64,000 nucleotides of DNA, taken from contig JAPLZF010000019.1 in assembly GCA_026395175.1 (NCBI GenBank), positions 3,115-67,114 on the forward strand. Reading direction: 5' to 3'. Positions 40,591 through 58,971 of the stretch are shown piece by piece (within the stretch, counting starts at the first letter, position 1; the number at the start of each line of letters is the position of its first letter). The DNA comes from Candidatus Staskawiczbacteria bacterium (GTDB lineage Bacteria; Patescibacteriota; Minisyncoccia; Minisyncoccales; Staskawiczbacteraceae). Both the position numbers and the translations under genes were made by a program. The notes under the pieces were generated by a model. The model searched no databases. It saw nothing but the letters and a program-made list of their open reading frames with translations, and was not told the DNA's origin.

Positions 40591-41775
40591 ATGAAAATAC
40601 TTGCCATAGAAACATCCTGCGACGACACGGGAATTGCCATTTTGGAGGTCTCAAAGACTGGAGATTTTGCTGTTAAGGCAAATGTTATTGCTTCACAAGT
40701 AAAAATTGGCAAAAAATACGGCGGAGTTTATCCAATGATGGCAAAACGCGAGCACCAAAAAAATATTCTGCCGGCCTTAATTAGCGCTTTGGAAAAAGCC
40801 AGGATGCTGAAAAAACCCGACAAAAGCCCAAAGGAGCATTTTGACGGGCCCGCCACAATCTCGCTAGAAGCGAGTTTGGGCGCGGTTTTAGAGAGAGAAC
40901 CGGAGTTGCTGAAAAAAATAATTCCATTCTTTAAGAAATATGAAAAACCAGATGTAGATTTAATTTCTGTCACAAATGGACCCGGTTTAGAGCCGTGTTT
41001 GTGGGTTGGAATAAATTTTGCAAAATGTTTGTCTTACTTTTGGAATATTCCGATTGTGCCGGTAAATCATACTGAATCTCACATTTTGGTAAATACTTTA
41101 GAAAATAAAAATATTAAATTCCCTGCCATTGCCTTAGTTGTTTCTGGCGGGCATACGCAAATTATTTTAGTGAAAGGCAAACCCCACTTCGCTAAAGCTT
41201 CGCGGGGCGCGTACAAAATTTTGGGTGAAACCAGAGACGATGCAGCAGGAGAATGCTTTGACAAATGCGCAAAAATTTTAGGTTTAGGCTACCCTGGCGG
41301 ACCAATTATTTCCAAATTAGCAGTAAAGTCGGTGGGATGTCGGACGTCCCACCGACTTCCGAGACCAATGATGGGCTCGGGTGATTATGATTTTAGTTTT
41401 TCAGGGCTGAAAACAGCTGTTTTGTATCAAGTGAAGAAAGACAAGAACAATTCTATGGAATTGTTCAATAAAGAATATAAAATGAAAATGGCGGCAGAAA
41501 TTCAGCAGGCAATAATTGATGTCTTAATTAAAAAAACAATAAAAGCCGGCACAGATTATAAAGCAAAAACAATAATTCTTGGAGGGGGAGTTTCTGCAAA
41601 CCAAGAATTAAGAAAACAATTTCTAGAATTTTCCAACGAATTTAAAATAATTTTTCCAAAACCAGAATTATCAACCGACAACGGTTTAATGATTGCTATT
41701 GCCGGGTTTTATCACAAAAATAAAATTACAAATTGGAAAAAGATATCTGCCAACGGCAATTTACGAATAAACTAA
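40591..41775 (+). CDS. tsaD: tRNA N6-adenosine threonylcarbamoyltransferase TsaD (with lineage-specific inserts)
   Basis: MKILAIETSCDDTGIAIL, VSGGHTQ, DDAAGECFDK, GGVSAN motifs; 394 aa versus about 340 typical. Confidence 0.92.
   Translation: MKILAIETSCDDTGIAILEVSKTGDFAVKANVIASQVKIGKKYGGVYPMMAKREHQKNILPALISALEKARMLKKPDKSPKEHFDGPATISLEASLGAVLEREPELLKKIIPFFKKYEKPDVDLISVTNGPGLEPCLWVGINFAKCLSYFWNIPIVPVNHTESHILVNTLENKNIKFPAIALVVSGGHTQIILVKGKPHFAKASRGAYKILGETRDDAAGECFDKCAKILGLGYPGGPIISKLAVKSVGCRTSHRLPRPMMGSGDYDFSFSGLKTAVLYQVKKDKNNSMELFNKEYKMKMAAEIQQAIIDVLIKKTIKAGTDYKAKTIILGGGVSANQELRKQFLEFSNEFKIIFPKPELSTDNGLMIAIAGFYHKNKITNWKKISANGNLRIN
41328..41356. repeat. GC-rich palindrome family 1 single unit inside tsaD
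   Basis: GTCGGTGGGATGTCGGACGTCCCACCGAC; encodes SVGCRTSHRLP in frame. Confidence 0.9.
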
Positions 41776-50691: not shown

Positions 50692-51063
50692 TTAAACTAA
50701 TTTGTTTATTTTTAACTCTTTTAACAAACCTGCCATTTTTTCTTTTAGTTCTGGAATATCTTCTTTTATAGTTTTCCAAACCACTTTTATATTTACTCCA
50801 AAATATTCGTGTATCAATTTATTCCTCATCCCCTTTACCTTTGCCCACTTTATTTCGCTGTTTATTTTTTTTATTGATGTGGGAACATTTTTTGTTGCTT
50901 CTCCAATAATTTCTATTGCGCGGACAACTGCATAAATCGTTTTTTTGTCGTTTTGGAACTCTTCAAAACTAAAACCTTCAACAAATTTTTCTATCTCTTC
51001 TATTGAATTATAGATATCTAGAATATAATCCTTATATTCTCTCTTCGACGAATTCTTTTTCAT
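50692..51063 (-). CDS. hepT: HepT-like (DUF86) ribonuclease toxin
   Basis: 123-aa ORF; RNKLIHEY = Rx4HxY motif. Confidence 0.8.
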   Translation of the reverse strand: MKKNSSKREYKDYILDIYNSIEEIEKFVEGFSFEEFQNDKKTIYAVVRAIEIIGEATKNVPTSIKKINSEIKWAKVKGMRNKLIHEYFGVNIKVVWKTIKEDIPELKEKMAGLLKELKINKLV

Positions 51064-51362
51064 ATATAAATTACTTCTTCTAAAATATGCTTTCCAATGT
51101 ATGGCTTCAGAGAATCTTTCATCACCAAATCAATTTTAGTTCCCAAAAGTTTTTTCAAATAATCCTCCAAATCCATAAGTTTAAAAAGGCTTGGCTCATC
51201 AATAAACTCAACCAAGATATCAATATCGCTTCCTTTCCTTTGTTCGCCACGTGAATACGAACCAAAAACGCCGATTTTTTTTACCAAAAATTGTTCTTTC
51301 AAAAATTGCTCGGAATTCTTCAATTCTTCTTTTACATTTTTAAGTTTCGCCAAATTTTTCAT
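51060..51362 (-). CDS. mntA: MntA-like nucleotidyltransferase antitoxin
   Basis: 100-aa ORF; GVFGSYSRGEQRKGSDIDILV (GSx10DxD) motif; 4-nt overlap with hepT. Confidence 0.8.
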   Translation of the reverse strand: MKNLAKLKNVKEELKNSEQFLKEQFLVKKIGVFGSYSRGEQRKGSDIDILVEFIDEPSLFKLMDLEDYLKKLLGTKIDLVMKDSLKPYIGKHILEEVIYI

Positions 51363-51428
51363 AATTTATTATATCTTATTTTATCACAAAACAAATTTCA
51401 CTTCAAGTCCATTAAATGTGCCGATCAA

Positions 51429-51456
51429 GTCGGTGGGACGTCGGACGTCCCACCAC
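51429..51456. repeat. GC-rich palindrome family 1, copy flanking the RAYT gene 3' end
   Basis: GTCGGTGGGACGTCGGACGTCCCACCAC, 9 nt after the stop codon. Confidence 0.9.
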
Positions 51457-51464
51457 TATCAATG

Positions 51465-52199
51465 TTATTCTAACGCCAATTTTTCAAGATCTGGTAGCTT
51501 ATTCTTATTTTTTATCCAGCCGTCAATTCCAGCTCTACATCCTACTGGACCACCCATAAACTCCAAAAAGAAATCTCTTTGCGTTACCGAAGGAAAAGTT
51601 TTTTTACCTAAATAATCAACATAACTGTGGCGCTTATTGTTTTCCAAAAATTCTTTGACTTTTTTGGGATTTTTTATCCCTTTTTCCTTCCAGCCGGGCT
51701 CAATTATAGAAATTAGATTAGCGTGCACATATAAAAATGCATTTCTCAATTGGTCGTCGTCCTTAATATGAACTGCACGAAATTTATTAAAAAGATGCCC
51801 CATACGCTGATATTTCTTGTTAAAATATTTAGCGTATCCGCCATTAACTTTTTTCATGAATTCAGTTATACCATTGTCCTCTAACTGCTTTACAATTAAA
51901 TGTAAATGATTGGGCATAAAGGAAAAAGCAAGCACATCCACTAATTTATCTCTCTCGTCAATATATTCAGAAAGGTGGGATGTCGGACGTCCCACCGACT
52001 CTCTTTCTTGCTTCTTAAATCTATTACGAGCCCTTCTCCGTTCCCAAATTTCTACCTTTTTACTATTATTAAATTCGTAAATAGAAAAAATACCGCGATA
52101 AAAATCACTCTCGTCAACAAAAATAACTGTGTCTCCGACGGCCCTGCTCACGACATGATAAATTTCGTCGTTAACTAAAAGAGGTTTGATATAACTCAT
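51465..52199 (-). CDS. IS200/IS605-family Y1 (HUH) transposase, RAYT-like
   Basis: start moved to MSYIKPLLVNDEIYHVVSRAV; HUH motif MPNHLHLIV; later FLYVHANL Tyr region; the track ORF N-terminal extension runs through a repeat and overlaps the next gene. Confidence 0.7.
   Translation of the reverse strand: MSYIKPLLVNDEIYHVVSRAVGDTVIFVDESDFYRGIFSIYEFNNSKKVEIWERRRARNRFKKQERESVGRPTSHLSEYIDERDKLVDVLAFSFMPNHLHLIVKQLEDNGITEFMKKVNGGYAKYFNKKYQRMGHLFNKFRAVHIKDDDQLRNAFLYVHANLISIIEPGWKEKGIKNPKKVKEFLENNKRHSYVDYLGKKTFPSVTQRDFFLEFMGGPVGCRAGIDGWIKNKNKLPDLEKLALE
51974..51999. repeat. GC-rich palindrome family 1 copy inside the RAYT CDS
   Basis: GGTGGGATGTCGGACGTCCCACCGAC; encodes SVGRPTSHLS in frame. Confidence 0.9.
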
Positions 52200-52249
52200 T
52201 TTTTTTATTTTATTTATTATATTATTTATTATACCAAAAATAATTAAAA

Positions 52250-52275
52250 GGTGGGATGTCGGACGTCCCACCGAC
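52250..52275. repeat. GC-rich palindrome family 1 copy upstream of the RAYT gene
   Basis: GGTGGGATGTCGGACGTCCCACCGAC, 51 nt upstream of the ATG. Confidence 0.9.
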
Positions 52276-52297
52276 TCGCTAAACTGTTTTCTGCAAA

Positions 52298-52330
52298 AAA
52301 AATCCCCACCTATGCTAGCGTGGGGCCTTG
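52298..52330 (-). terminator. Hairpin CCCCAC-loop-GTGGGG plus T-run after the 52357.. gene
   Basis: minus strand GGCCCCACGCTAGCATAGGTGGGGATTTTTTTT. Confidence 0.6.
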
Positions 52331-52356
52331 CCTGAAAAAACGGAAAGTGAGCGTTG

Positions 52357-52767
52357 CTACGCTCGGGAAGCGAGCTCTCTGATGTTGGCAAACTCTCGAC
52401 TGGACGCCAGCTTTTTCTTTGAGATACCAACTTTGAGAGATGGATTGTCTGCTAGAATTCGGTCAGTCTGTAAGGCGAGTTTCTCCAAGCTCGTTGCAGC
52501 TACCTGATATTCGGGAAGACTGGCGCTTGGTTTTGGCATATGCATTTCCGCAGTATCACACAGCCGCAGACATTCAGCAACGAGCGTGTAAAAAGGCTCC
52601 CCCAACTCCGGTTTAACCGCTCGCAATTCGTTCACGCCCTCCCATGCTGCAACCCGTAAACAGTACTTCTTCGATTTGGCATCTGGGGTAGCCAAATACG
52701 CCAACGCCATATCCAAGACGCTCATCAGTATTTCATTCACCTCCGAAAAATCACCCAATCTACACAT
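52357..52767 (-). CDS. Hypothetical protein in GC-rich island
   Basis: start moved to MCRLGDFSEV (AAGGA 8 nt upstream); GC-rich; no motif recognised. Confidence 0.45.
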   Translation of the reverse strand: MCRLGDFSEVNEILMSVLDMALAYLATPDAKSKKYCLRVAAWEGVNELRAVKPELGEPFYTLVAECLRLCDTAEMHMPKPSASLPEYQVAATSLEKLALQTDRILADNPSLKVGISKKKLASSREFANIRELASRA

Positions 52768-52833
52768 ATTGTTTTCCTTAAAGGTTGCATTCCCATTCCA
52801 ATCAATACTTACTCTCCTTGTCTTCAAATAGAA

Positions 52834-53325
52834 TCACCTACTATTAACGAGCCAGATGTGACGGCCGGTGTCCAGGGTAGAGCAATCCCAGCATAAGCCA
52901 GTTTCGCCCATGTGGTCCACGAAGGGGAAATAATTGAAGCTATCCCCTTGTTTAAGGAACGAGTTGTCGGGAATCCCGATAAACCCTCCACAATGGGGAA
53001 AGATTGTCTGGAGAAGTTCTTGAAGGCGACCATAATCCAAAAACGCCGCCACCCACTGTCCGGAAATCTGGCCATATTCCTCCTCCAACGCCTCTGTGGC
53101 ATTAGCACCATTAGCCATACCGGCTCCCCAACCACACTCGACCAGTGCAAACCTCTGGGTGATTGCACTTTCTACTGCAACTGGTTCAGCGTTGTCCCGC
53201 CTTCTCCGTCCTCTCCATTCAAAGCGAGGAGATAGCCTGCTTGCGACAGCAAGCGGGGAATTCTCGGGAGCAACGCCGTCAAGCGTCAACTCGATGGGTT
53301 CCCATTTCAATGTTATCAATTGCAT
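52834..53325 (-). CDS. Possible SMI1/KNR4 (SUKH)-family immunity-like protein in GC-rich island
   Basis: 163-aa ORF; LEEEYGQISGQWVAAFLDYG and FPFVDHMGETGLCWDCS...GRHIWLV resemble the two conserved SUKH-1 blocks; by eye only. Confidence 0.4.
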   Translation of the reverse strand: MQLITLKWEPIELTLDGVAPENSPLAVASRLSPRFEWRGRRRRDNAEPVAVESAITQRFALVECGWGAGMANGANATEALEEEYGQISGQWVAAFLDYGRLQELLQTIFPHCGGFIGIPDNSFLKQGDSFNYFPFVDHMGETGLCWDCSTLDTGRHIWLVNSR

Positions 53326-53483
53326 GACATACCCTTTCTCTGTTATGTTCCCATTCCAATGCTTACACGCTTTAAATTACAAGATTTTGCAATCTAAAGC
53401 GTGCAAGCATAAATTTTATTAACAAAGAACTATTAATCACTTTGTCCTGGATTATATAAAATCTACATAATTATGTCAACAGC

Positions 53484-53512
53484 TTGCAAAAATTAAACTA
53501 ATGGTGTATATT
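53484..53512 (+). promoter_or_regulatory. Candidate rpsA promoter
   Basis: TTGCAA - 17 nt - (TGt)TATATT; would give a leader of about 200 nt. Confidence 0.4.
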
Positions 53513-53726
53513 TGATATATTAATTAGTAACACTGCTGACCCTTCAACTTCATTCAGGGTAGACCTGCAGCAGGATCCTTCGGCTCGCTCATTTGAGCTC
53601 GCTCAGGAGAGAAAAATAAACAGGGAATTTTTTATTGAAAAATTATAGAAATTGCTAACACAATTTATATAATTTATCGCTCGGTCGATATGAAAATAAA
53701 TTTTCATATCTTCCTCACTCAAAATT

Positions 53727-54806
53727 ATGATAAAAGATATAATTAAAAAAGTAGACACAGCTTCTCCACAGCTTTCGGTTGGTTCAACAGTTGAAGGAAA
53801 AGTTGTTGCCAGAGATCGCTCGTCTCTTTTCATTGATTTGGGCATTCATGGAACCGGCATCATATATGGAAGGGAGTTTTACAATGTCAAAGAAATTGCA
53901 AAAAGCCTTGAAATTGGCGACAAAGTTCATGCCAAAATTGTGGAAATGGAAAACGATGAAGGATACAAAGAACTTTCATTGAAAGATGCCACAAAAGAAA
54001 TCAGCTGGCAAAGATTGAAAGAATTAAGAGATTCAGAGCAGGTTTTAAGCGTAAGAGTTATGGGAGTCAACAAAGGCGGACTTTTGACATCTTTAGACGG
54101 CATTCAGGCTTTCTTGCCTGTTTCGCAACTGGCTCCAGAGCACTACCCTCGAGTGGCAGATGCAGACAAATCAAAAATTCTAAAAGAATTGCAAAAATTT
54201 ATTGGTAAAACTTTGGAAGTAAAAATTCTTGACTTGCTGGCTTCAGAGAATAAACTAATTTTGTCTGAAAAAGCAAAGTCTGAAGAAAAAACCAAAGAAA
54301 CTTTGAAAAACTACAAAAGAGGAGACATTATTGACGGAGAAATAACCGGAATTGCCGACTTTGGAGCTTTTATTAAATTTCCTGTTGATGTTGAAGACAA
54401 AAACGACCAAATTGAAGGCTTAATTCACATTTCAGAGCTTGATTGGCAATTGGTTGAAAATCCTGCAGAAGTTGTGAAAGTTGGAGAAGCAGTCAAAGCT
54501 CAAATTATCAACATAAACAACAACCAGGTTTTTCTTTCTTTAAAATCATTAAAGAAAAATCCTTGGGAAGAAATTGAAAAAGAATACAAAAAAGACGACG
54601 TAATAAAAGGAAAAGTAACCAAATTTTCAACTTTTGGGGCTTTTGTGGAATTGGCTCCAAAAATTAGAGGACTTTGCCACATTTCTGAATTTGAGTCAAA
54701 AGAAGAAATGGAAAAGCAATTGGAAATTGGCAAAACCTATGATTTTAAAGTTTTGTTGATAGAACCAAAAGAACACAGAATGAGCTTGAAATTAGTTAAG
54801 GAATAA
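53727..54806 (+). CDS. rpsA: 30S ribosomal protein S1 (four S1 domains)
   Basis: 359-aa ORF with four repeats of the S1 OB-fold pattern (G..V.G.V....G.F..L....G..H.SE). Confidence 0.85.
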   Translation: MIKDIIKKVDTASPQLSVGSTVEGKVVARDRSSLFIDLGIHGTGIIYGREFYNVKEIAKSLEIGDKVHAKIVEMENDEGYKELSLKDATKEISWQRLKELRDSEQVLSVRVMGVNKGGLLTSLDGIQAFLPVSQLAPEHYPRVADADKSKILKELQKFIGKTLEVKILDLLASENKLILSEKAKSEEKTKETLKNYKRGDIIDGEITGIADFGAFIKFPVDVEDKNDQIEGLIHISELDWQLVENPAEVVKVGEAVKAQIININNNQVFLSLKSLKKNPWEEIEKEYKKDDVIKGKVTKFSTFGAFVELAPKIRGLCHISEFESKEEMEKQLEIGKTYDFKVLLIEPKEHRMSLKLVKE

Positions 54807-54821
54807 AAAAACAAACAAAAA

Positions 54822-54846
54822 AGCTGGGTCCGACCTAGCTTTTTTG
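54822..54846 (+). terminator. rpsA terminator
   Basis: AGCTGGGT-ccg-ACCTAGCT followed by TTTTTTG. Confidence 0.65.
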
Positions 54847-54857
54847 TTTTAGAAAAC

Positions 54858-54886
54858 TTGACAAATACGGCATTGTTTTATAGAAT
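54858..54886 (+). promoter_or_regulatory. Promoter of the NYN-domain gene
   Basis: TTGACA - 17 nt - TAGAAT. Confidence 0.6.
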
Positions 54887-54945
54887 AACATTGCGGGAAA
54901 AGGCTCATTAACATTAACATTTTATAAGTTACAAGGAGTTGTGTG

Positions 54946-55482
54946 ATGCCAACGAATAAGATAAAAATGAAAGATAAAAAAGTCCTTGTCTTGATCGACT
55001 GGGACAATCTCTTTATATGCTTGTGCAATAGATTCGGGGCAGAAATACGCCTTGAATACCGAATACAAAAGTTATTGGAATGGGTGCAAAGCCAAATAGG
55101 AGAAATCCTCAAGGGGTATGGATTTGTTTTTGCTCCCGAACACTTGGCTGATTTTTATCAGAAATTGTGTACAGAGAATAATCTTAGGCTGATGATTTGC
55201 CCTAAACGGCAAACTGATGGAAAAGAAGAAGACACAGTGGACGCAACGCTAATCTGGTTTGCCAGGCTTATGATGAGGCATCCTGATGTTGGGTACATCT
55301 GCCTTGTCGCCGGCGACGATGATTACGTGGCAATGATGAAAGAAGCAGGACTGTGCGGAATCAAAAGGGTTCTTGCTCCGCCAACCATTGGCTCTTTGTC
55401 CAAAAACAAAAAACTGGTGGCAACGGCCGACAAACACCCTACAACATTGAAGAAAATGCTCTTAAGGATAGACACCTTATAG
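54946..55482 (+). CDS. NYN-domain (LabA/DUF88-like) putative ribonuclease
   Basis: VLVLIDWDNL near the N-terminus, VDATLI, CLVAGDDDY: acidic residues arranged as in PIN-like NYN nucleases; AAGGAG RBS before ATG 54946. Confidence 0.65.
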   Translation: MPTNKIKMKDKKVLVLIDWDNLFICLCNRFGAEIRLEYRIQKLLEWVQSQIGEILKGYGFVFAPEHLADFYQKLCTENNLRLMICPKRQTDGKEEDTVDATLIWFARLMMRHPDVGYICLVAGDDDYVAMMKEAGLCGIKRVLAPPTIGSLSKNKKLVATADKHPTTLKKMLLRIDTL

Positions 55483-55488
55483 AGATAT

Positions 55489-55513
55489 GCAGAGCTGACA
55501 ACTCTGCTTTTTT
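55489..55513 (+). terminator. Terminator after the NYN gene
   Basis: GCAGAG-ctgacaa-CTCTGC followed by TTTTTTATTTT. Confidence 0.7.
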
Positions 55514-55526
55514 ATTTTAAATAAGC

Positions 55527-55554
55527 TTGACAACAATTTGTTTTTGAGTATAAT
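55527..55554 (+). promoter_or_regulatory. Promoter of the 468-aa GC-rich gene
   Basis: TTGACA - 16 nt - TATAAT, about 65 nt before an AAAGGAG RBS. Confidence 0.65.
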
Positions 55555-55619
55555 ATAGGCAGTTCTTTGATTCGCTAAATTTTGCAGATTACACAACGCT
55601 CTAAGAAAGGAGCAACGAA

Positions 55620-57026
55620 ATGAGTACTCTCACGGAAAAGCCGGCAAAGAAGCCGACGACAAGGAAAGAGAAAACTGGGCTCGCGCAACTCGGCGACGTG
55701 GTCAAAGGGACTGTGCTGGCAATACCGAAGCTTCGGTCACTGCCCAACCTGAATGGTCTGACGACGACCGTCGAGGAGAAAATGAAATTGGCACGCCAAA
55801 TTGAAGAAGATGTGACGACCGCGGTGAAGTTTCTCGGCGACGCGCGATGCCGGCTCGAGGCGTGCCAAGACCACCTCGAGCGCAAGATAGTGAACTCCGA
55901 AGTGGCGCAACCGATGACCGAAATGAGAGAATACCTTAAGGGCGTACTCGCCCTCGAGGACTTGATTTATCGGTCAACCGCAGCAATGGCATACATGAAG
56001 GCAAGTTTCAGCCAGCAGTTCGCAAGCGAAGAAGAGGCTATCGAGATGCTGACTGGCTTGGTCAACCGCGGTCTCCTTGTTCATGGAAGCGTCAGTAGCG
56101 CCATTACCGTCGGATACAAACACTACGACATCTCGCGGGAATTCGGGCTGGACGAAACCGACATCGCCGATGTCAAGGATGTCATCGCGAAGTTCGCTCG
56201 CGTCCTGAAGACGTTGGTTCGCCTTCAGCGTCAAGCCGAGGTAAAGAAGGCGTTGAAAAACGCCGAAATCACCCTGGACCAAGCGCTGGACGGCGCCAAC
56301 GGCACATGCCTACTGGATATTCCAGCCGAGCAGTACGAGAAAAACGGAGAGACCTTATGGCGCGGTGGCGGACAAATGCTGGTGCGATTCACCAACGAGG
56401 AGGTGATACCCATTCAGGGCATCGGCTCCATTGAACAGAACGTAAAGGAAATGGTGGAGACAGACGTCCGTCTCAGGTGCAACACTCTTTTGTGGGATGT
56501 GCCTCCTGGAAGCGGTGAAACTGCTTTCGAGAAAGTCCGCACCGGAGTGATGCGGAGCATGGACCTCAGCTCCGGCGAGGCGAAGACCTACGTCAGCAAG
56601 ATGAGGATTCTGTGGTACTTTGTCCGCCGGGCAGTGAATGCCGCAAAAGACAAGGAAGCCACGGACAAACTCAAGGACGAGTTTCGTGGCAGGGCAACCA
56701 TCTCGGCAACGGAATTCTTCGGACTTAACGGCAACGGCGGACAACCCTGCCAAGGCACCGCGCTACTGGAGTTCGAGGGTTCGTTTATTGTGAAAGGTGG
56801 CGGAACGGTCCAACACCTTTTCCTCCTGGCGAAAAACTTGGAGGATGACGGCGAAATGGTCGTCGAGGTTGCGGAGGTGCCCGAGCATCTTCAGAAAATT
56901 CTCGGCGAGTTCGTCGGCAAGAAGTACTCCGCGAGAGATGACTTCGCCAGCTGCCCCGAGCAGTTGCGGAGAATCCTCCGAGGAATCCGAGGCCATGCGG
57001 ACATGGCACACGCGACCGCCGAGTAA
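55620..57026 (+). CDS. Hypothetical 468-aa protein, strongly GC-rich orphan
   Basis: long ORF with good RBS, own promoter and terminator; basic N-terminus (KPAKKPTTRKEK); no NTPase, nuclease or RT motif recognised by eye. Confidence 0.7.
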   Translation: MSTLTEKPAKKPTTRKEKTGLAQLGDVVKGTVLAIPKLRSLPNLNGLTTTVEEKMKLARQIEEDVTTAVKFLGDARCRLEACQDHLERKIVNSEVAQPMTEMREYLKGVLALEDLIYRSTAAMAYMKASFSQQFASEEEAIEMLTGLVNRGLLVHGSVSSAITVGYKHYDISREFGLDETDIADVKDVIAKFARVLKTLVRLQRQAEVKKALKNAEITLDQALDGANGTCLLDIPAEQYEKNGETLWRGGGQMLVRFTNEEVIPIQGIGSIEQNVKEMVETDVRLRCNTLLWDVPPGSGETAFEKVRTGVMRSMDLSSGEAKTYVSKMRILWYFVRRAVNAAKDKEATDKLKDEFRGRATISATEFFGLNGNGGQPCQGTALLEFEGSFIVKGGGTVQHLFLLAKNLEDDGEMVVEVAEVPEHLQKILGEFVGKKYSARDDFASCPEQLRRILRGIRGHADMAHATAE

Positions 57027-57060
57027 TCGGCGGAACACAATCTGCAAAGTTAGCGAGTAA

Positions 57061-57112
57061 AGGGCATCGTGATTCATACCTGTTGTGTGATAACGATGCC
57101 CTCTTTTATTTT
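57061..57112 (+). terminator. Terminator after the 468-aa gene
   Basis: AGGGCATCGT-22 nt-ACGATGCCCT followed by CTTTTATTTT. Confidence 0.7.
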
Positions 57113-57138
57113 GCAAGAAAATATGTTAAATTATTTAT

Positions 57139-58971
57139 ATGAACCCACTAATCAAAAATTTTATATTTGTAATATTAATCCTGCTTATTGTCGGCGGAAT
57201 TTTTAGCTTGCTTTATTTTCCAGCTACAACTCCCAATGTGATATCCACCACTCAATTGGTTTCCGATATAAATGCAAGCAAGGTTAAAAAAATTGTTGTT
57301 TCTGGAGACACTTTGAATATAACCTACACAGATAATAAAACTGCCACTTCAATGAAGGAAGCCGGCACAGGTTTGACTGACTTGCTGATAAATTTGGGAG
57401 TTGCCAAGGACAATTTGCAAAAAGTTGATGTTACAAATCAAACAGCCAAAGAGGATTTGTGGTCATGGCTCACTCCGCTTTTGGTGTTTGGAGTTTTGCC
57501 ATTAATTGTTTTTGGATTTTTCTTTTGGACCATGATAAAGCAGGCAAAAACCGGAGCTATGCAGGCGTTTGACTTTACAAAAGCCAAAGCTCGCCTTTTT
57601 GGAGCCGAAGGCCACGGAAAAGAAAGAATAACTTTTAAAGATGTAGCTGGCCTTAAAGAAGCTAAAGAAGAACTGGTTGAAATTGTGGACTTTTTAAAAT
57701 TTCCAAAAAAATATTTGGCAATGGGAGCCAAAATACCAAGAGGAGTTTTGCTTGTTGGAGCAGCCGGAGTTGGAAAAACTTTGCTGGCAAGAGCTGTCGC
57801 CGGCGAAGCCAATGTTCCTTTTTTATCTGTTTCAGGTTCTGAATTCGTTGAAATGTTTGTTGGTGTGGGTTCTGCCCGCGTAAGAGATTTATTTGCCACT
57901 GCTAAAAAATCGGCTCCGTCAATAATTTTTATTGATGAATTAGACGCAATTGGAAGACACAGAGGAAGTGGCTATGGCGGAGGGCACGACGAAAGAGAAC
58001 AGACTTTGAACCAAATTTTGGTTGAAATGGACGGCTTTGAAAAAGAAACAGGAGTTATTATTTTAGCTGCCACAAACAGGCCGGATATTTTAGACCCAGC
58101 TTTATTAAGACCTGGAAGATTCGACAGGAAAATTGTTTTAGATCCGCCCGATGTACACGACCGAGAAGAAATTTTAAAAATTCACTCAAAGGACAAGCCA
58201 TTGGGGGAAGACGTTAAATTTCAAGAAACAGCCGAAAGAACTCCAGGATTTTCCGGAGCTGATTTGGCCAACGTTGCCAACGAAGCTGCCTTGCTGGCAG
58301 CCCGCCAAAACAAAACGCAAGTTGACCAAAAAGAATTTTTGGAAGCAATTGAAAAAGTTTTATTGGGGCCTGAAAGAAAATCGCATATACTTTCTAAAAA
58401 AGAAAAGGAAATTGCAGCTTACCACGAAGCAGGACATGCTTTGGTTTCCACATTTATGCCAGAAACAGAGCCTGTAAGAAAAATTTCTATTATTGCAAGA
58501 GGCATGGCAGCAGGATATACTTTGCAAGTGCCTTCGGAAAGAAAAATGAAAACCAAAACCGGCTTCATTTCTGAAATTGCAACTTTGCTGGGCGGATGCA
58601 CGGCTGAAAAAATAAAATTTGGAGAAATGACAACCGGCGCTTCAAACGACTTGAGCCGGGCTTCAGACATGGCAAGAAGGCTGGTTAAGGAATATGGAAT
58701 GTCTTCTTTGGGACTTATAGCATTCGGTGAAAAAGATGAAATGGTGTTTTTGGGAAAAGAAATTTCAGAACAAAGAAATTACTCTGAAAAAATTGCCGAA
58801 AGAATTGACGAGGAAGTGGACATAATTATAAAAGGCGCGCAGAAAAAAGCAGAAGTGATTTTGATAAAACACACTAATTTATTGGACAAAGTTGCAAAAG
58901 ACTTAGTTGAGAAAGAAACAATTGAAAGAGAAGAATTTGAAAAACTGATTGGAAAAGTTAGCAAAAAATAA
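57139..58971 (+). CDS. ftsH: ATP-dependent zinc metalloprotease FtsH
   Basis: 610-aa ORF; Walker [12 protein letters not shown] region, HEAGHA zinc motif. Confidence 0.97.

Follow-up and report, generated by a model that had tools for sequence, protein, structure and literature searches.

A GC-rich two-gene block beside rpsA in Candidatus Staskawiczbacteria as a probable moron-like expression cassette of an insertion hot spot

In a 64-kb, 37.6% GC genome fragment of Candidatus Staskawiczbacteria bacterium, a member of the Candidate Phyla Radiation (hereafter the window, i.e., the whole stretch of DNA analysed), positions 52277-53483 carry a GC-rich block with two minus-strand open reading frames (ORFs), orfA and orfB. 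Our results suggest, with a probability of about 60%, that this block is an autonomous accessory expression cassette, comparable to the ‘morons’ of phages, which sits in a lineage-wide insertion hot spot and combines a control by RNA structure and a repeated motif with a two-protein role in conflict or another accessory function. The hot spot corresponds to the few bp between the back-to-back promoters of the operon of gyrA and a metallo-beta-lactamase (MBL)-fold hydrolase gene and of rpsA (ribosomal protein S1), beside an older unit made of repetitive extragenic palindromes (REPs) and a RAYT gene. On the minus strand, the cassette reads in the order sigma-70 promoter, ~120-nt leader with a 24-bp hairpin, orfA, orfB and intrinsic terminator, and its parts and boundaries are the following:

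52277..53483, minus strand: the whole cassette (~1.2 kb, two genes), lying between a REP copy and the conserved rpsA promoter.
53451..53479, minus strand: predicted sigma-70 promoter TTGACA-17-TATAAT (12/12 consensus), with a predicted transcription start near 53444.
53359..53410, minus strand: leader hairpin of 24 contiguous mRNA pairs, including 3 G·U pairs, with a 4-nt loop, from folding and repeat search.
53366..53347, minus strand: motif copy 1, GTAAGCATTGGAATGGGAAC, ending 21 nt before the ATG of orfA, with its first 8 nt in the 3′ arm of the hairpin.
52834..53325, minus strand: orfA, an ORF of 163 aa (pI 4.8, predicted soluble, mixed alpha/beta) with the ribosome-binding site AAAGGG.
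53311..53298, minus strand: motif copy 3, ATTGAAATGGGAAC (1 mismatch), over codons 5-9 of orfA, 14 nt inside it.
52812..52789, minus strand: motif copy 2, GTAAGTATTGATTGGAATGGGAAT, ending 21 nt before the ATG of orfB.
52357..52767, minus strand: orfB, an ORF of 136 aa from its ATG (pI 6.6, predicted soluble, all-alpha).
52295..52327, minus strand: predicted intrinsic terminator, a CCCCAC...GTGGGG stem followed by T8 (-29.2 kcal/mol, z = -2.6).
52247..52280, no strand assigned: REP palindrome GGTGGGATGTCGGACGTCCCACC of the RAYT unit, the distal boundary of the cassette and the breakpoint of Logan unitigs.
53484..53640, plus strand: conserved rpsA promoter and structured leader, the proximal boundary, outside the cassette.

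An original prediction, made from the letters alone, had described two minus-strand genes in a GC-rich island adjoining the RAYT module, and this picture of a discrete, compositionally distinct two-gene insertion was borne out, including the coordinates of both ORFs. Indeed, the GC content reaches 47.2% over the cassette, 52.2% in orfA and 49.6% in orfB, compared to a mean of 0.376 (sd 0.039) over windows of 1100 nt, and the values per 100 nt range from 0.47 to 0.58 within 52300-53300 and from 0.26 to 0.38 in the flanks. The tetranucleotide distance of the cassette to its host falls in the top 2% of windows, whereas its GC-normalised dinucleotide distance (delta* 0.108, against a window mean of 0.088 +/- 0.031) is equalled or exceeded by 22% of windows; only the GC-driven tetranucleotide distance stands out, and the dinucleotide signature is ordinary and host-like. 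An assembly chimera, the concern that had been attached to this contrast, is excluded, since unitigs from more than ten independent read sets reproduce the cassette and its junction on the S1 side. In these data, 17 Logan unitigs (listed as ten loci; ERR15302xxx series and SRR20698650) carry the exact orfA and orfB proteins, nearly all of them being 100% identical to the window, and they start within rpsA (reaching 54456 at most), cover the cassette and break at the REP at 52248. One unitig, L006 (99.8% identical, 3 gaps), extends into RAYT sequence. It fuses the REP at ~52250 to the REP at ~51975 (positions compared: 51943-52249), which may reflect a deletion of the RAYT N-terminus or an assembly-graph artefact at the repeat. 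Among the other read-set variants, L008 is devoid of 74 bp (53647-53720) of the DNA that separates the rpsA leader from the start codon, and the first 111 nt of L009 match nothing in the window.

Comparison with relatives places the cassette in a slot whose content varies from genome to genome. The S1 protein served to fetch 80 related loci from GTDB species representatives, in which the conserved synteny is gyrA, a 49-aa ORF and MBL on one side, and rpsA followed further on by a 610-aa ORF on the other. In the window, the minus strand carries gyrA, the 49-aa ORF, the MBL-fold hydrolase gene, HepT, MNT, RAYT and then orfB and orfA, and the plus strand beyond the cassette carries rpsA, an NYN-domain gene, a 468-aa ORF (orf468) and the 610-aa ORF. 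The ancestral spacer between the divergent MBL and rpsA genes measures 60-300 bp in most of 70 loci, with -35 boxes only 2-3 nt apart, compared to 3 kb in the window, where the ancestral MBL-operon promoter (TTGAAG-17-TAAAAT) is found at 51406..51378. Using blastn, window positions 51378-52276 (promoter, REP, RAYT, REP) align with L014 8272-9174 at 83% and with L022 8971-9878 at 81%, and window positions 53484-53591 (rpsA promoter and leader) align with L014 9847-9955, whereas window 52277-53483 displays no DNA homology to these two closest RAYT-bearing relatives. Moreover, L022 presents the exact empty site, its REP being ~10 bp from the S1 -35 box, and this interval is taken up by unrelated GC-rich genes in L014 (170 aa, Cys/His-rich) and L026 (240 aa). 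No relative of orfA or orfB was found in the 80 related loci (tblastn), nor any similarity to the ORFs that occupy the slot in relatives (blastp). The cassette thus appears to be specific to one Staskawiczbacteria population, and its gain or replacement in this lineage is considered real because it is absent from relatives, because L022 is empty and because L014 carries another gene.

The slot cargo of the other relatives includes HicA/HicB, an MNT-like nucleotidyltransferase, PaaX-like, DUF202, HTH and ankyrin-repeat proteins, together with several further orphan genes of 0.43-0.57 GC, and most of these slot genes have a TTGAC(A/T) promoter of their own, next to the rpsA -35 box. A different GC-rich orphan family occupies the slot in L011 (9486-9773), L013 (9388-9771) and L014 (9237-9749), on the minus strand; its members share a Cys/His-rich C-terminal domain (C..HH...C.C...EF.LL) and a 5′-UTR hairpin (GCTCAT...ATGAGC), both conserved, and match no Pfam or NCBIfam family. 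Regarding the neighbouring cargo in the window, the HepT/MNT toxin-antitoxin pair lies at 50692-51362 (minus strand), between the ancestral MBL-operon promoter and the MBL gene; the pair is not found at that position in L014 and L022, and a homologous pair lies between gyrA and the 49-aa ORF in L029, L033 and L078.

Several lines of evidence lead us to regard orfA and orfB as probable genes. A purine-rich ribosome-binding site is found 4-7 nt before each ATG, and in both ORFs the GC content by codon position follows the order GC1 > GC3 > GC2. When the base composition of the cassette was kept in mononucleotide shuffles, the longest ORF reached at least 163 aa in 0.4% of 2000 sequences, and two ORFs of at least 136 aa on one strand were never obtained (0/2000). 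Note that gene callers are split on the length of orfB (136 vs 156 aa), as orfB could also start at a TTG at 52827, which would yield 156 aa with an AGGTGAT ribosome-binding site overlapping the orfA stop codon; the gap between both ORFs is then 6 nt instead of 66 nt. The two ORFs display no meaningful similarity to each other, and they were therefore rejected as paralogues.

The expression signals around these ORFs are those of a self-contained unit. Only four promoters with 12/12 consensus positions were found in the 64-kb window, the cassette promoter among them, and it stands back to back with the rpsA -35 box (TTGCAA, 53484-53489) with 4 nt between. The ~120-nt leader folds with a minimum energy of -46.6 kcal/mol (z = -7.5), dominated by the hairpin of 24 contiguous pairs. 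A palindrome upstream of the first gene had already been pointed out as a possible operator with 18-bp arms; the palindrome is indeed present, with longer arms of 24 nt each (53359-53382 and 53387-53410, 88% complementary, 4-nt loop), and the operator role was not supported. It lies at about +35 to +86 from the predicted transcription start and overlaps neither the -35 box, the -10 box nor the start site itself. In addition, the hairpin reaches -33.7 kcal/mol (z = -9) on the minus (mRNA) strand, compared to -21.0 kcal/mol on the plus strand, where its stem is interrupted by three internal mismatches; each of these three arm positions pairs as G·U in the mRNA sense and stands as C·A on the other strand. 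These observations favour an RNA hairpin rather than a DNA operator, because the mismatches are G·U on the mRNA strand only and because of the location downstream of the start; the strand asymmetry by itself is weak evidence, with a chance of ~1 in 8 by our estimate if the three changes are transitions. The 3′ arm of the hairpin overlaps the GTAAGCAT start of motif copy 1, and a predicted outer helix of the leader (UUCUUUGUUA/UAACAGAGAA) overlaps the orfA ribosome-binding site. At the other end of the cassette, a smaller hairpin (52349-52364) overlaps the orfB stop codon. A search of positions 51000-58000 against Rfam (cmscan, E<=1) gave over the hairpin only chance-level matches to microRNA models, with 18-21 bits versus gathering thresholds of 171-500.

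The same motif had been described before each gene, at 25-35 nt from its start; the repetition was confirmed and extended to three copies, of which the two upstream ones end exactly 21 nt before their ATG. Copies 1 and 2 cover about -42/-45 to -22 relative to the ATG and agree at 17/19 positions (ATTGGAATGGGAAY-RY-AAC). With at most 2 mismatches, the motif is found 4 times in the window against 2.1 expected on both strands, and 3 of these matches are gathered on a single strand within 570 nt. The frame of copy 3 differs from that of copies 1 and 2, which makes a case for a nucleic-acid element. Most likely, the motif represents a shared cis element of both translation-initiation regions, the alternative of a coding relic being weighed below. 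Its distribution is narrow: neither a further motif copy nor another occurrence of the hairpin was found in 1.18 Mb of related loci, and an exact-pattern scan of metagenome and viral contigs returned 132 matches of the chance type only. A widespread regulatory element was thus rejected, as these matches correspond to chance, to WNGNxT codons in unrelated proteins and to an 82-nt satellite (L187); a start codon at +21 was present in 7/132 of them, i.e., at the chance rate, and the apparent excess of GTAAG before the matched motifs came mostly from a few sequence families. A tiny spliceosomal-type intron (GTAAGY...YAAC...AG) was also envisaged and set aside on the bacterial expression signals and bacterial context alone.

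The two proteins themselves appear to be orphans in the collections searched. In a word-index search of 5.8 billion clustered proteins, orfA and orfB each match only themselves, and an exhaustive search with phmmer over 1.84 billion cluster representatives, which covered orfA only, likewise returned only orfA itself; the searched clusters represent roughly 15 billion proteins. At E<=1, neither protein was assigned to a family in Pfam, NCBIfam or PADLOC, while the single PHROGs match of orfA, to a family whose function is unknown, is at the chance level (E=0.17). No match was obtained in the PDB by sequence search, in the JGI metagenomes (scanned with orfA only) or in IMG/VR, and GenBank phages and PLSDB plasmids (blastn, tblastn) contain no match to the cassette or its proteins.

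This absence of relatives includes the SUKH (SMI1/KNR4) family of immunity proteins, to which orfA had been tentatively assigned. As a test set, 88 genuine SMI1/KNR4 proteins were found with a family-like seed, all of which carry PF09346 and PF14568 and most of which carry PF14567. Against their alignment, hhalign gave orfA a score of 15.1 with a probability of 0.6% (P=0.1) over 25 columns, a score also reached by 21 of 200 shuffled orfA sequences, whereas distant true members, when left out of the alignment, were recovered at 99-100%. Together with the lack of any Pfam match at E<=1, these results led us to set aside the SUKH identity as not supported. The C-terminal NYFPFVDHMGETGLCWDCSTLDTGR of orfA does align with the SUKH motif ‘IPIA.D..GN.IC’, a resemblance that is short and at the chance level. 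Furthermore, the neighbours of orfA are the rpsA promoter upstream and orfB, REP and RAYT downstream, and no nearby ORF matches a domain of polymorphic toxins (Rhs, CdiA, LXG or similar).

The GC contrast had also been taken as a sign of recent acquisition from a high-GC donor or host, and this idea found no support in the donor search: no homologue of orfA or orfB was detected in the protein, viral, phage or plasmid scans, nor of orfA in the JGI metagenomes, the only match being each time the protein itself. Moreover, a second variable slot, noted also in L011, L013, L014, L015, L027, L028, L034, L038, L040, L072, L073 and L083, is found on the plus strand at 54858-57100, between rpsA and the 610-aa ORF, which in the window holds the NYN gene (ATG at about 54947, to 55482) and orf468 (55620-57026), each with a near-consensus promoter and a terminator of its own. 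Homologues of the NYN gene occupy the same position in 21 relatives (23-58% identity) and those of orf468 in 12-14 relatives (23-39% identity), two of the 14 tblastn matches being weak and on the opposite strand, while identity in the flanking genes remains at 80-90% in the closest relatives. The 13 members of the orf468 family have conserved W/G/R/P positions and no Pfam or PDB profile match. Its homologues always display 0.46-0.62 GC, compared to 0.31-0.42 for S1 and gyrA of the same genomes, and the slot, where occupied, usually ranges from 0.41 to 0.55 GC. GC-rich, fast-evolving cassettes recur on both sides of rpsA across the lineage, and since this high GC is kept across deep divergence, it provides no evidence of recent import from a high-GC donor.

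Considering all these elements, we propose that the cassette is transcribed as one bicistronic mRNA, in which the 24-bp hairpin would act as RNA, making the 5′ end more stable and/or controlling access to the orfA ribosome-binding site. The motif placed 21 nt before each ATG could be a common cis element through which one trans factor, possibly either product of the cassette, controls both cistrons. The two proteins would probably work together in conflict or in another accessory function, for example as toxin and antitoxin or as effector and immunity protein, a proposal made because the same slot in relatives and the adjacent position hold HicAB, MNT/HepT and other variable cargo. Finally, the cassette most likely came in as a replacement, by recombination in the conserved flanking sequences. 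We infer both the mechanism and the two-protein module from anatomy and neighbourhood only, and several observations weigh against them. The function is deduced from context alone, and no toxin, antitoxin or defence profile of Pfam, NCBIfam, PADLOC or PHROGs matches orfA or orfB. The AlphaFold2 single-sequence model of orfA is unusable (pLDDT 36, pTM 0.29), and the all-helical model of orfB (pLDDT 59) retrieved from the PDB with Foldseek only generic helical bundles at E>=1. The motif and the hairpin are found nowhere else in the sequences searched, and the leader of orfB (the 66-nt spacer) displays no significant structure (z = +0.9), so that the motif has no common structural context. Lastly, copies 1 and 2 each share the frame of the ORF that follows and, if translated, would read (H/D)WNGN(I/A)T.K, with three differences that are synonymous; they may thus be coding relics instead of regulatory elements, or copy 2 may be the true N-terminus of a 156-aa orfB. 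In the case of orfA, a TAA at 53379 interrupts this upstream frame (‘HWNGNIT’), and no start codon lies in between.

Four other explanations were weighed against the moron-like cassette. In the first, the slot would be hypervariable and evolve in place, with genes next to rpsA rapidly diverging or emerging inside the lineage; orfA and orfB would be its local occupants, either new or diverged beyond recognition, and local forces, for instance GC-biased gene conversion in a hot spot of recombination, would keep their GC high. The cassette promoter indeed sits beside the rpsA -35 box as do the promoters of other slot genes and the ancestral MBL promoter (2 to ~12 nt), the dinucleotide signature is host-like, and orf468 and NYN are syntenic and GC-rich throughout with 23-58% identity versus 80-90% in their flanks; we nevertheless hold this scenario to be unlikely, given that orfA and orfB have no detectable similarity to any other slot occupant, that the occupants of L011, L013 and L014 form a recognisable family, so that divergence does not always erase similarity, and that L022 offers a clean empty site. 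A classical type II toxin-antitoxin operon, in which the acidic orfA product would be the antitoxin repressing through the palindrome and orfB the toxin, seems less probable again. Two small co-oriented genes with one promoter and one terminator, an acidic first product (pI 4.8) followed by a neutral to basic one, the AGGTGAT overlapping the orfA stop codon if orfB starts at TTG 52827, and the frequency of toxin-antitoxin modules in the hot spot all point in this direction, against which stand the absence of any toxin or antitoxin family match in Pfam, NCBIfam and PADLOC, a palindrome that lies off the -35, -10 and start site with an RNA-type compensation, and the absence of a recognisable DNA-binding fold in orfA.

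Decaying or non-functional foreign DNA, with pseudogenes or chance ORFs (e.g., an orfA whose N-terminus was lost upon insertion of the palindrome), is very unlikely in our view. Such decay is suggested by the lack of homologues, by several ORFs of >100 aa in other frames of the cassette DNA, by the in-frame ‘HWNGNIT’ cut off from orfA by the TAA and by the low confidence of the structure models, and it is contradicted by the shuffles that never yielded the two tandem ORFs, by the intact consensus promoter, both ribosome-binding sites and terminator, by the coding-like GC of the codon positions and by a block that is fixed and identical in many samples. The lowest probability of all goes to the scenario in which orfA is a SUKH immunity protein imported recently with its partner from a high-GC donor, maybe the host of an episymbiont, under a palindromic DNA operator. 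Apart from the C-terminal alignment mentioned above, TEALEEEYGQISGQWVAAFL loosely recalls, in our reading, the N-terminal E..LG..LP..Y..FL helix of the family, and the block is lineage-specific with a GC well above that of the host. However, genuine distant SUKH proteins are readily recovered where orfA scores like its shuffles, no toxin gene adjoins orfA, the roughly 15 billion proteins represented yielded no donor homologue, the dinucleotide signature is not foreign, and the palindrome lies downstream of the promoter with its G·U pairs on the mRNA strand only. Returning to the moron-like cassette, a broader extension is that the two slots flanking rpsA together form a lineage-wide cassette-exchange locus, in which self-contained, persistently GC-rich orphan genes with promoters and terminators of their own would come and go beside a promoter that ranks among the most conserved of the genome, with no integrase or recognisable attachment site, which we put forward as a speculative possibility, itself rather doubtful. 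If true, these ultra-small bacteria would share an unsampled GC-rich mobile pool, or a local process (GC-biased gene conversion, selection) would maintain the GC, and orfA-orfB, with a leader motif of its own, would belong to this pool as a member not sampled elsewhere.

Other elements of the locus deserve description. The RAYT gene (IS200-like Y1 transposase; 51465-52202, minus strand) is flanked by REP copies at 51429-51462 and 52247-52280, another copy being found at 41331-41357, and it holds an in-frame REP copy at 51971-52004 (...ESVGRPTSHLS...), between the N-terminal strand and the HUH motif; such an in-gene REP is also found in the RAYT orthologues of L014 (8361-9089) and L022 (9072-9803). 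These orthologues share 81-86% with the RAYT of the window, and RAYT and its REPs are older than the cassette because of their presence in L014 and L022, the latter without any cassette. An integron, insertion sequence (IS) or miniature inverted-repeat transposable element (MITE) origin was also rejected, since no integrase was found in the neighbourhood, no end repeats are common with the cassettes of relatives, and RAYT and the REPs are older. Integron cassettes bear an attC at the cassette end, with integrase and attI nearby, and usually have no promoter of their own, whereas the present cassette has its own promoter.

On the other side, the rpsA leader is conserved in the close relatives L011-L030, with a TTGCAA-17-TATATT promoter, two hairpins, a tail GAGAAAAAUAAAC(A/C)GGU and a U-run. 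Hairpin 1 has an invariant CUGCUG-N5-CAGCAG stem, with an extra stem in the loop in the window, L014, L017 and L023, and hairpin 2 displays compensatory changes across genomes (CCUCUU/AGAGGA, CCCCGCC/GGCGGGG, CUGGCGG/ACGCUAG). This leader, which has no Rfam match, could be an autoregulatory leader of S1. Note also that the cumulative GC skew has its minimum at ~53000-53700, where the gene orientation flips from minus to plus (switch at ~53.4 kb). A replication origin at this switch was rejected, as no DnaA-box cluster was found and only single boxes with 1 mismatch are present at 53762 and 54505; the switch may simply be a divergent operon boundary.

Taken alone, the cassette would be an ordinary find for a bacterial genome: another orphan operon that is specific to one strain and lies in a variable region. 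Its two orphan proteins, encoded in a clean and apparently intact expression unit, are nevertheless candidate players in new functions of conflict or symbiosis in a lineage of uncultured episymbionts. The most interesting by-product of this analysis is that the cargo around rpsA is recurrently GC-rich and evolves fast. DNA that a genome acquires usually has a higher AT content than the genome itself, and a recurrent GC-rich cargo in AT-rich genomes runs against this trend, which calls for caution when a GC contrast is read as a sign of recent import from a high-GC donor.

Compared to known systems, the cassette resembles the cargo of integration hot spots and ‘defence islands’ in that one intergenic site accommodates varied cargo (toxin-antitoxin, RAYT, orphans), and it differs in that the site is tiny (few bp between divergent -35 boxes) with no evident integrase or attachment site, and in that much of the cargo is markedly GC-rich in AT-rich genomes. 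With type II toxin-antitoxin systems (HicAB, MNT/HepT), it shares the arrangement of two small co-oriented genes, presumably co-transcribed, an acidic first product and real toxin-antitoxin neighbours; in contrast, no family match was found, the palindrome lies in the transcribed leader and not over the promoter, and toxin-antitoxin operons do not feature a motif repeated ahead of each cistron. As for SUKH / SMI1-KNR4 proteins, orfA belongs to the same size class and shows the short C-terminal pattern aromatic-P-F-x-D-x-x-G-x-x-x-C-x-D, while its profile comparison remains at the chance level and no toxin gene is adjacent. At the RNA level, the closest parallels may be hairpins that stabilise 5′-UTRs and translational operators in mRNAs of bacteria and phages, such as the ompA 5′ stem-loop and the T4 RegA-type operators, in view of the very stable leader stem-loop and of the short purine-rich element at a fixed distance before two starts, as in translational operators of the RegA type. 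However, the hairpin begins here ~34 nt from the predicted 5′ end and not at the 5′ end as in ompA-type stabilisers, and the element has no counterpart in any other searched sequence and no known trans factor, in contrast to RegA-type operators.

Finally, phage morons are units of transcription that stand on their own and have been inserted between conserved genes (Cumby, Davidson and Maxwell, ‘The moron comes of age’, PMC3594210). The present cassette differs from them by its chromosomal residence (between gyrA/MBL and rpsA), with no flanking phage genes and no match among IMG/VR or GenBank phages, and by being more GC-rich than its host. It resembles them by its deviant composition, by its own promoter and factor-independent terminator, and by its position between two conserved genes at a site where close relatives lack it.

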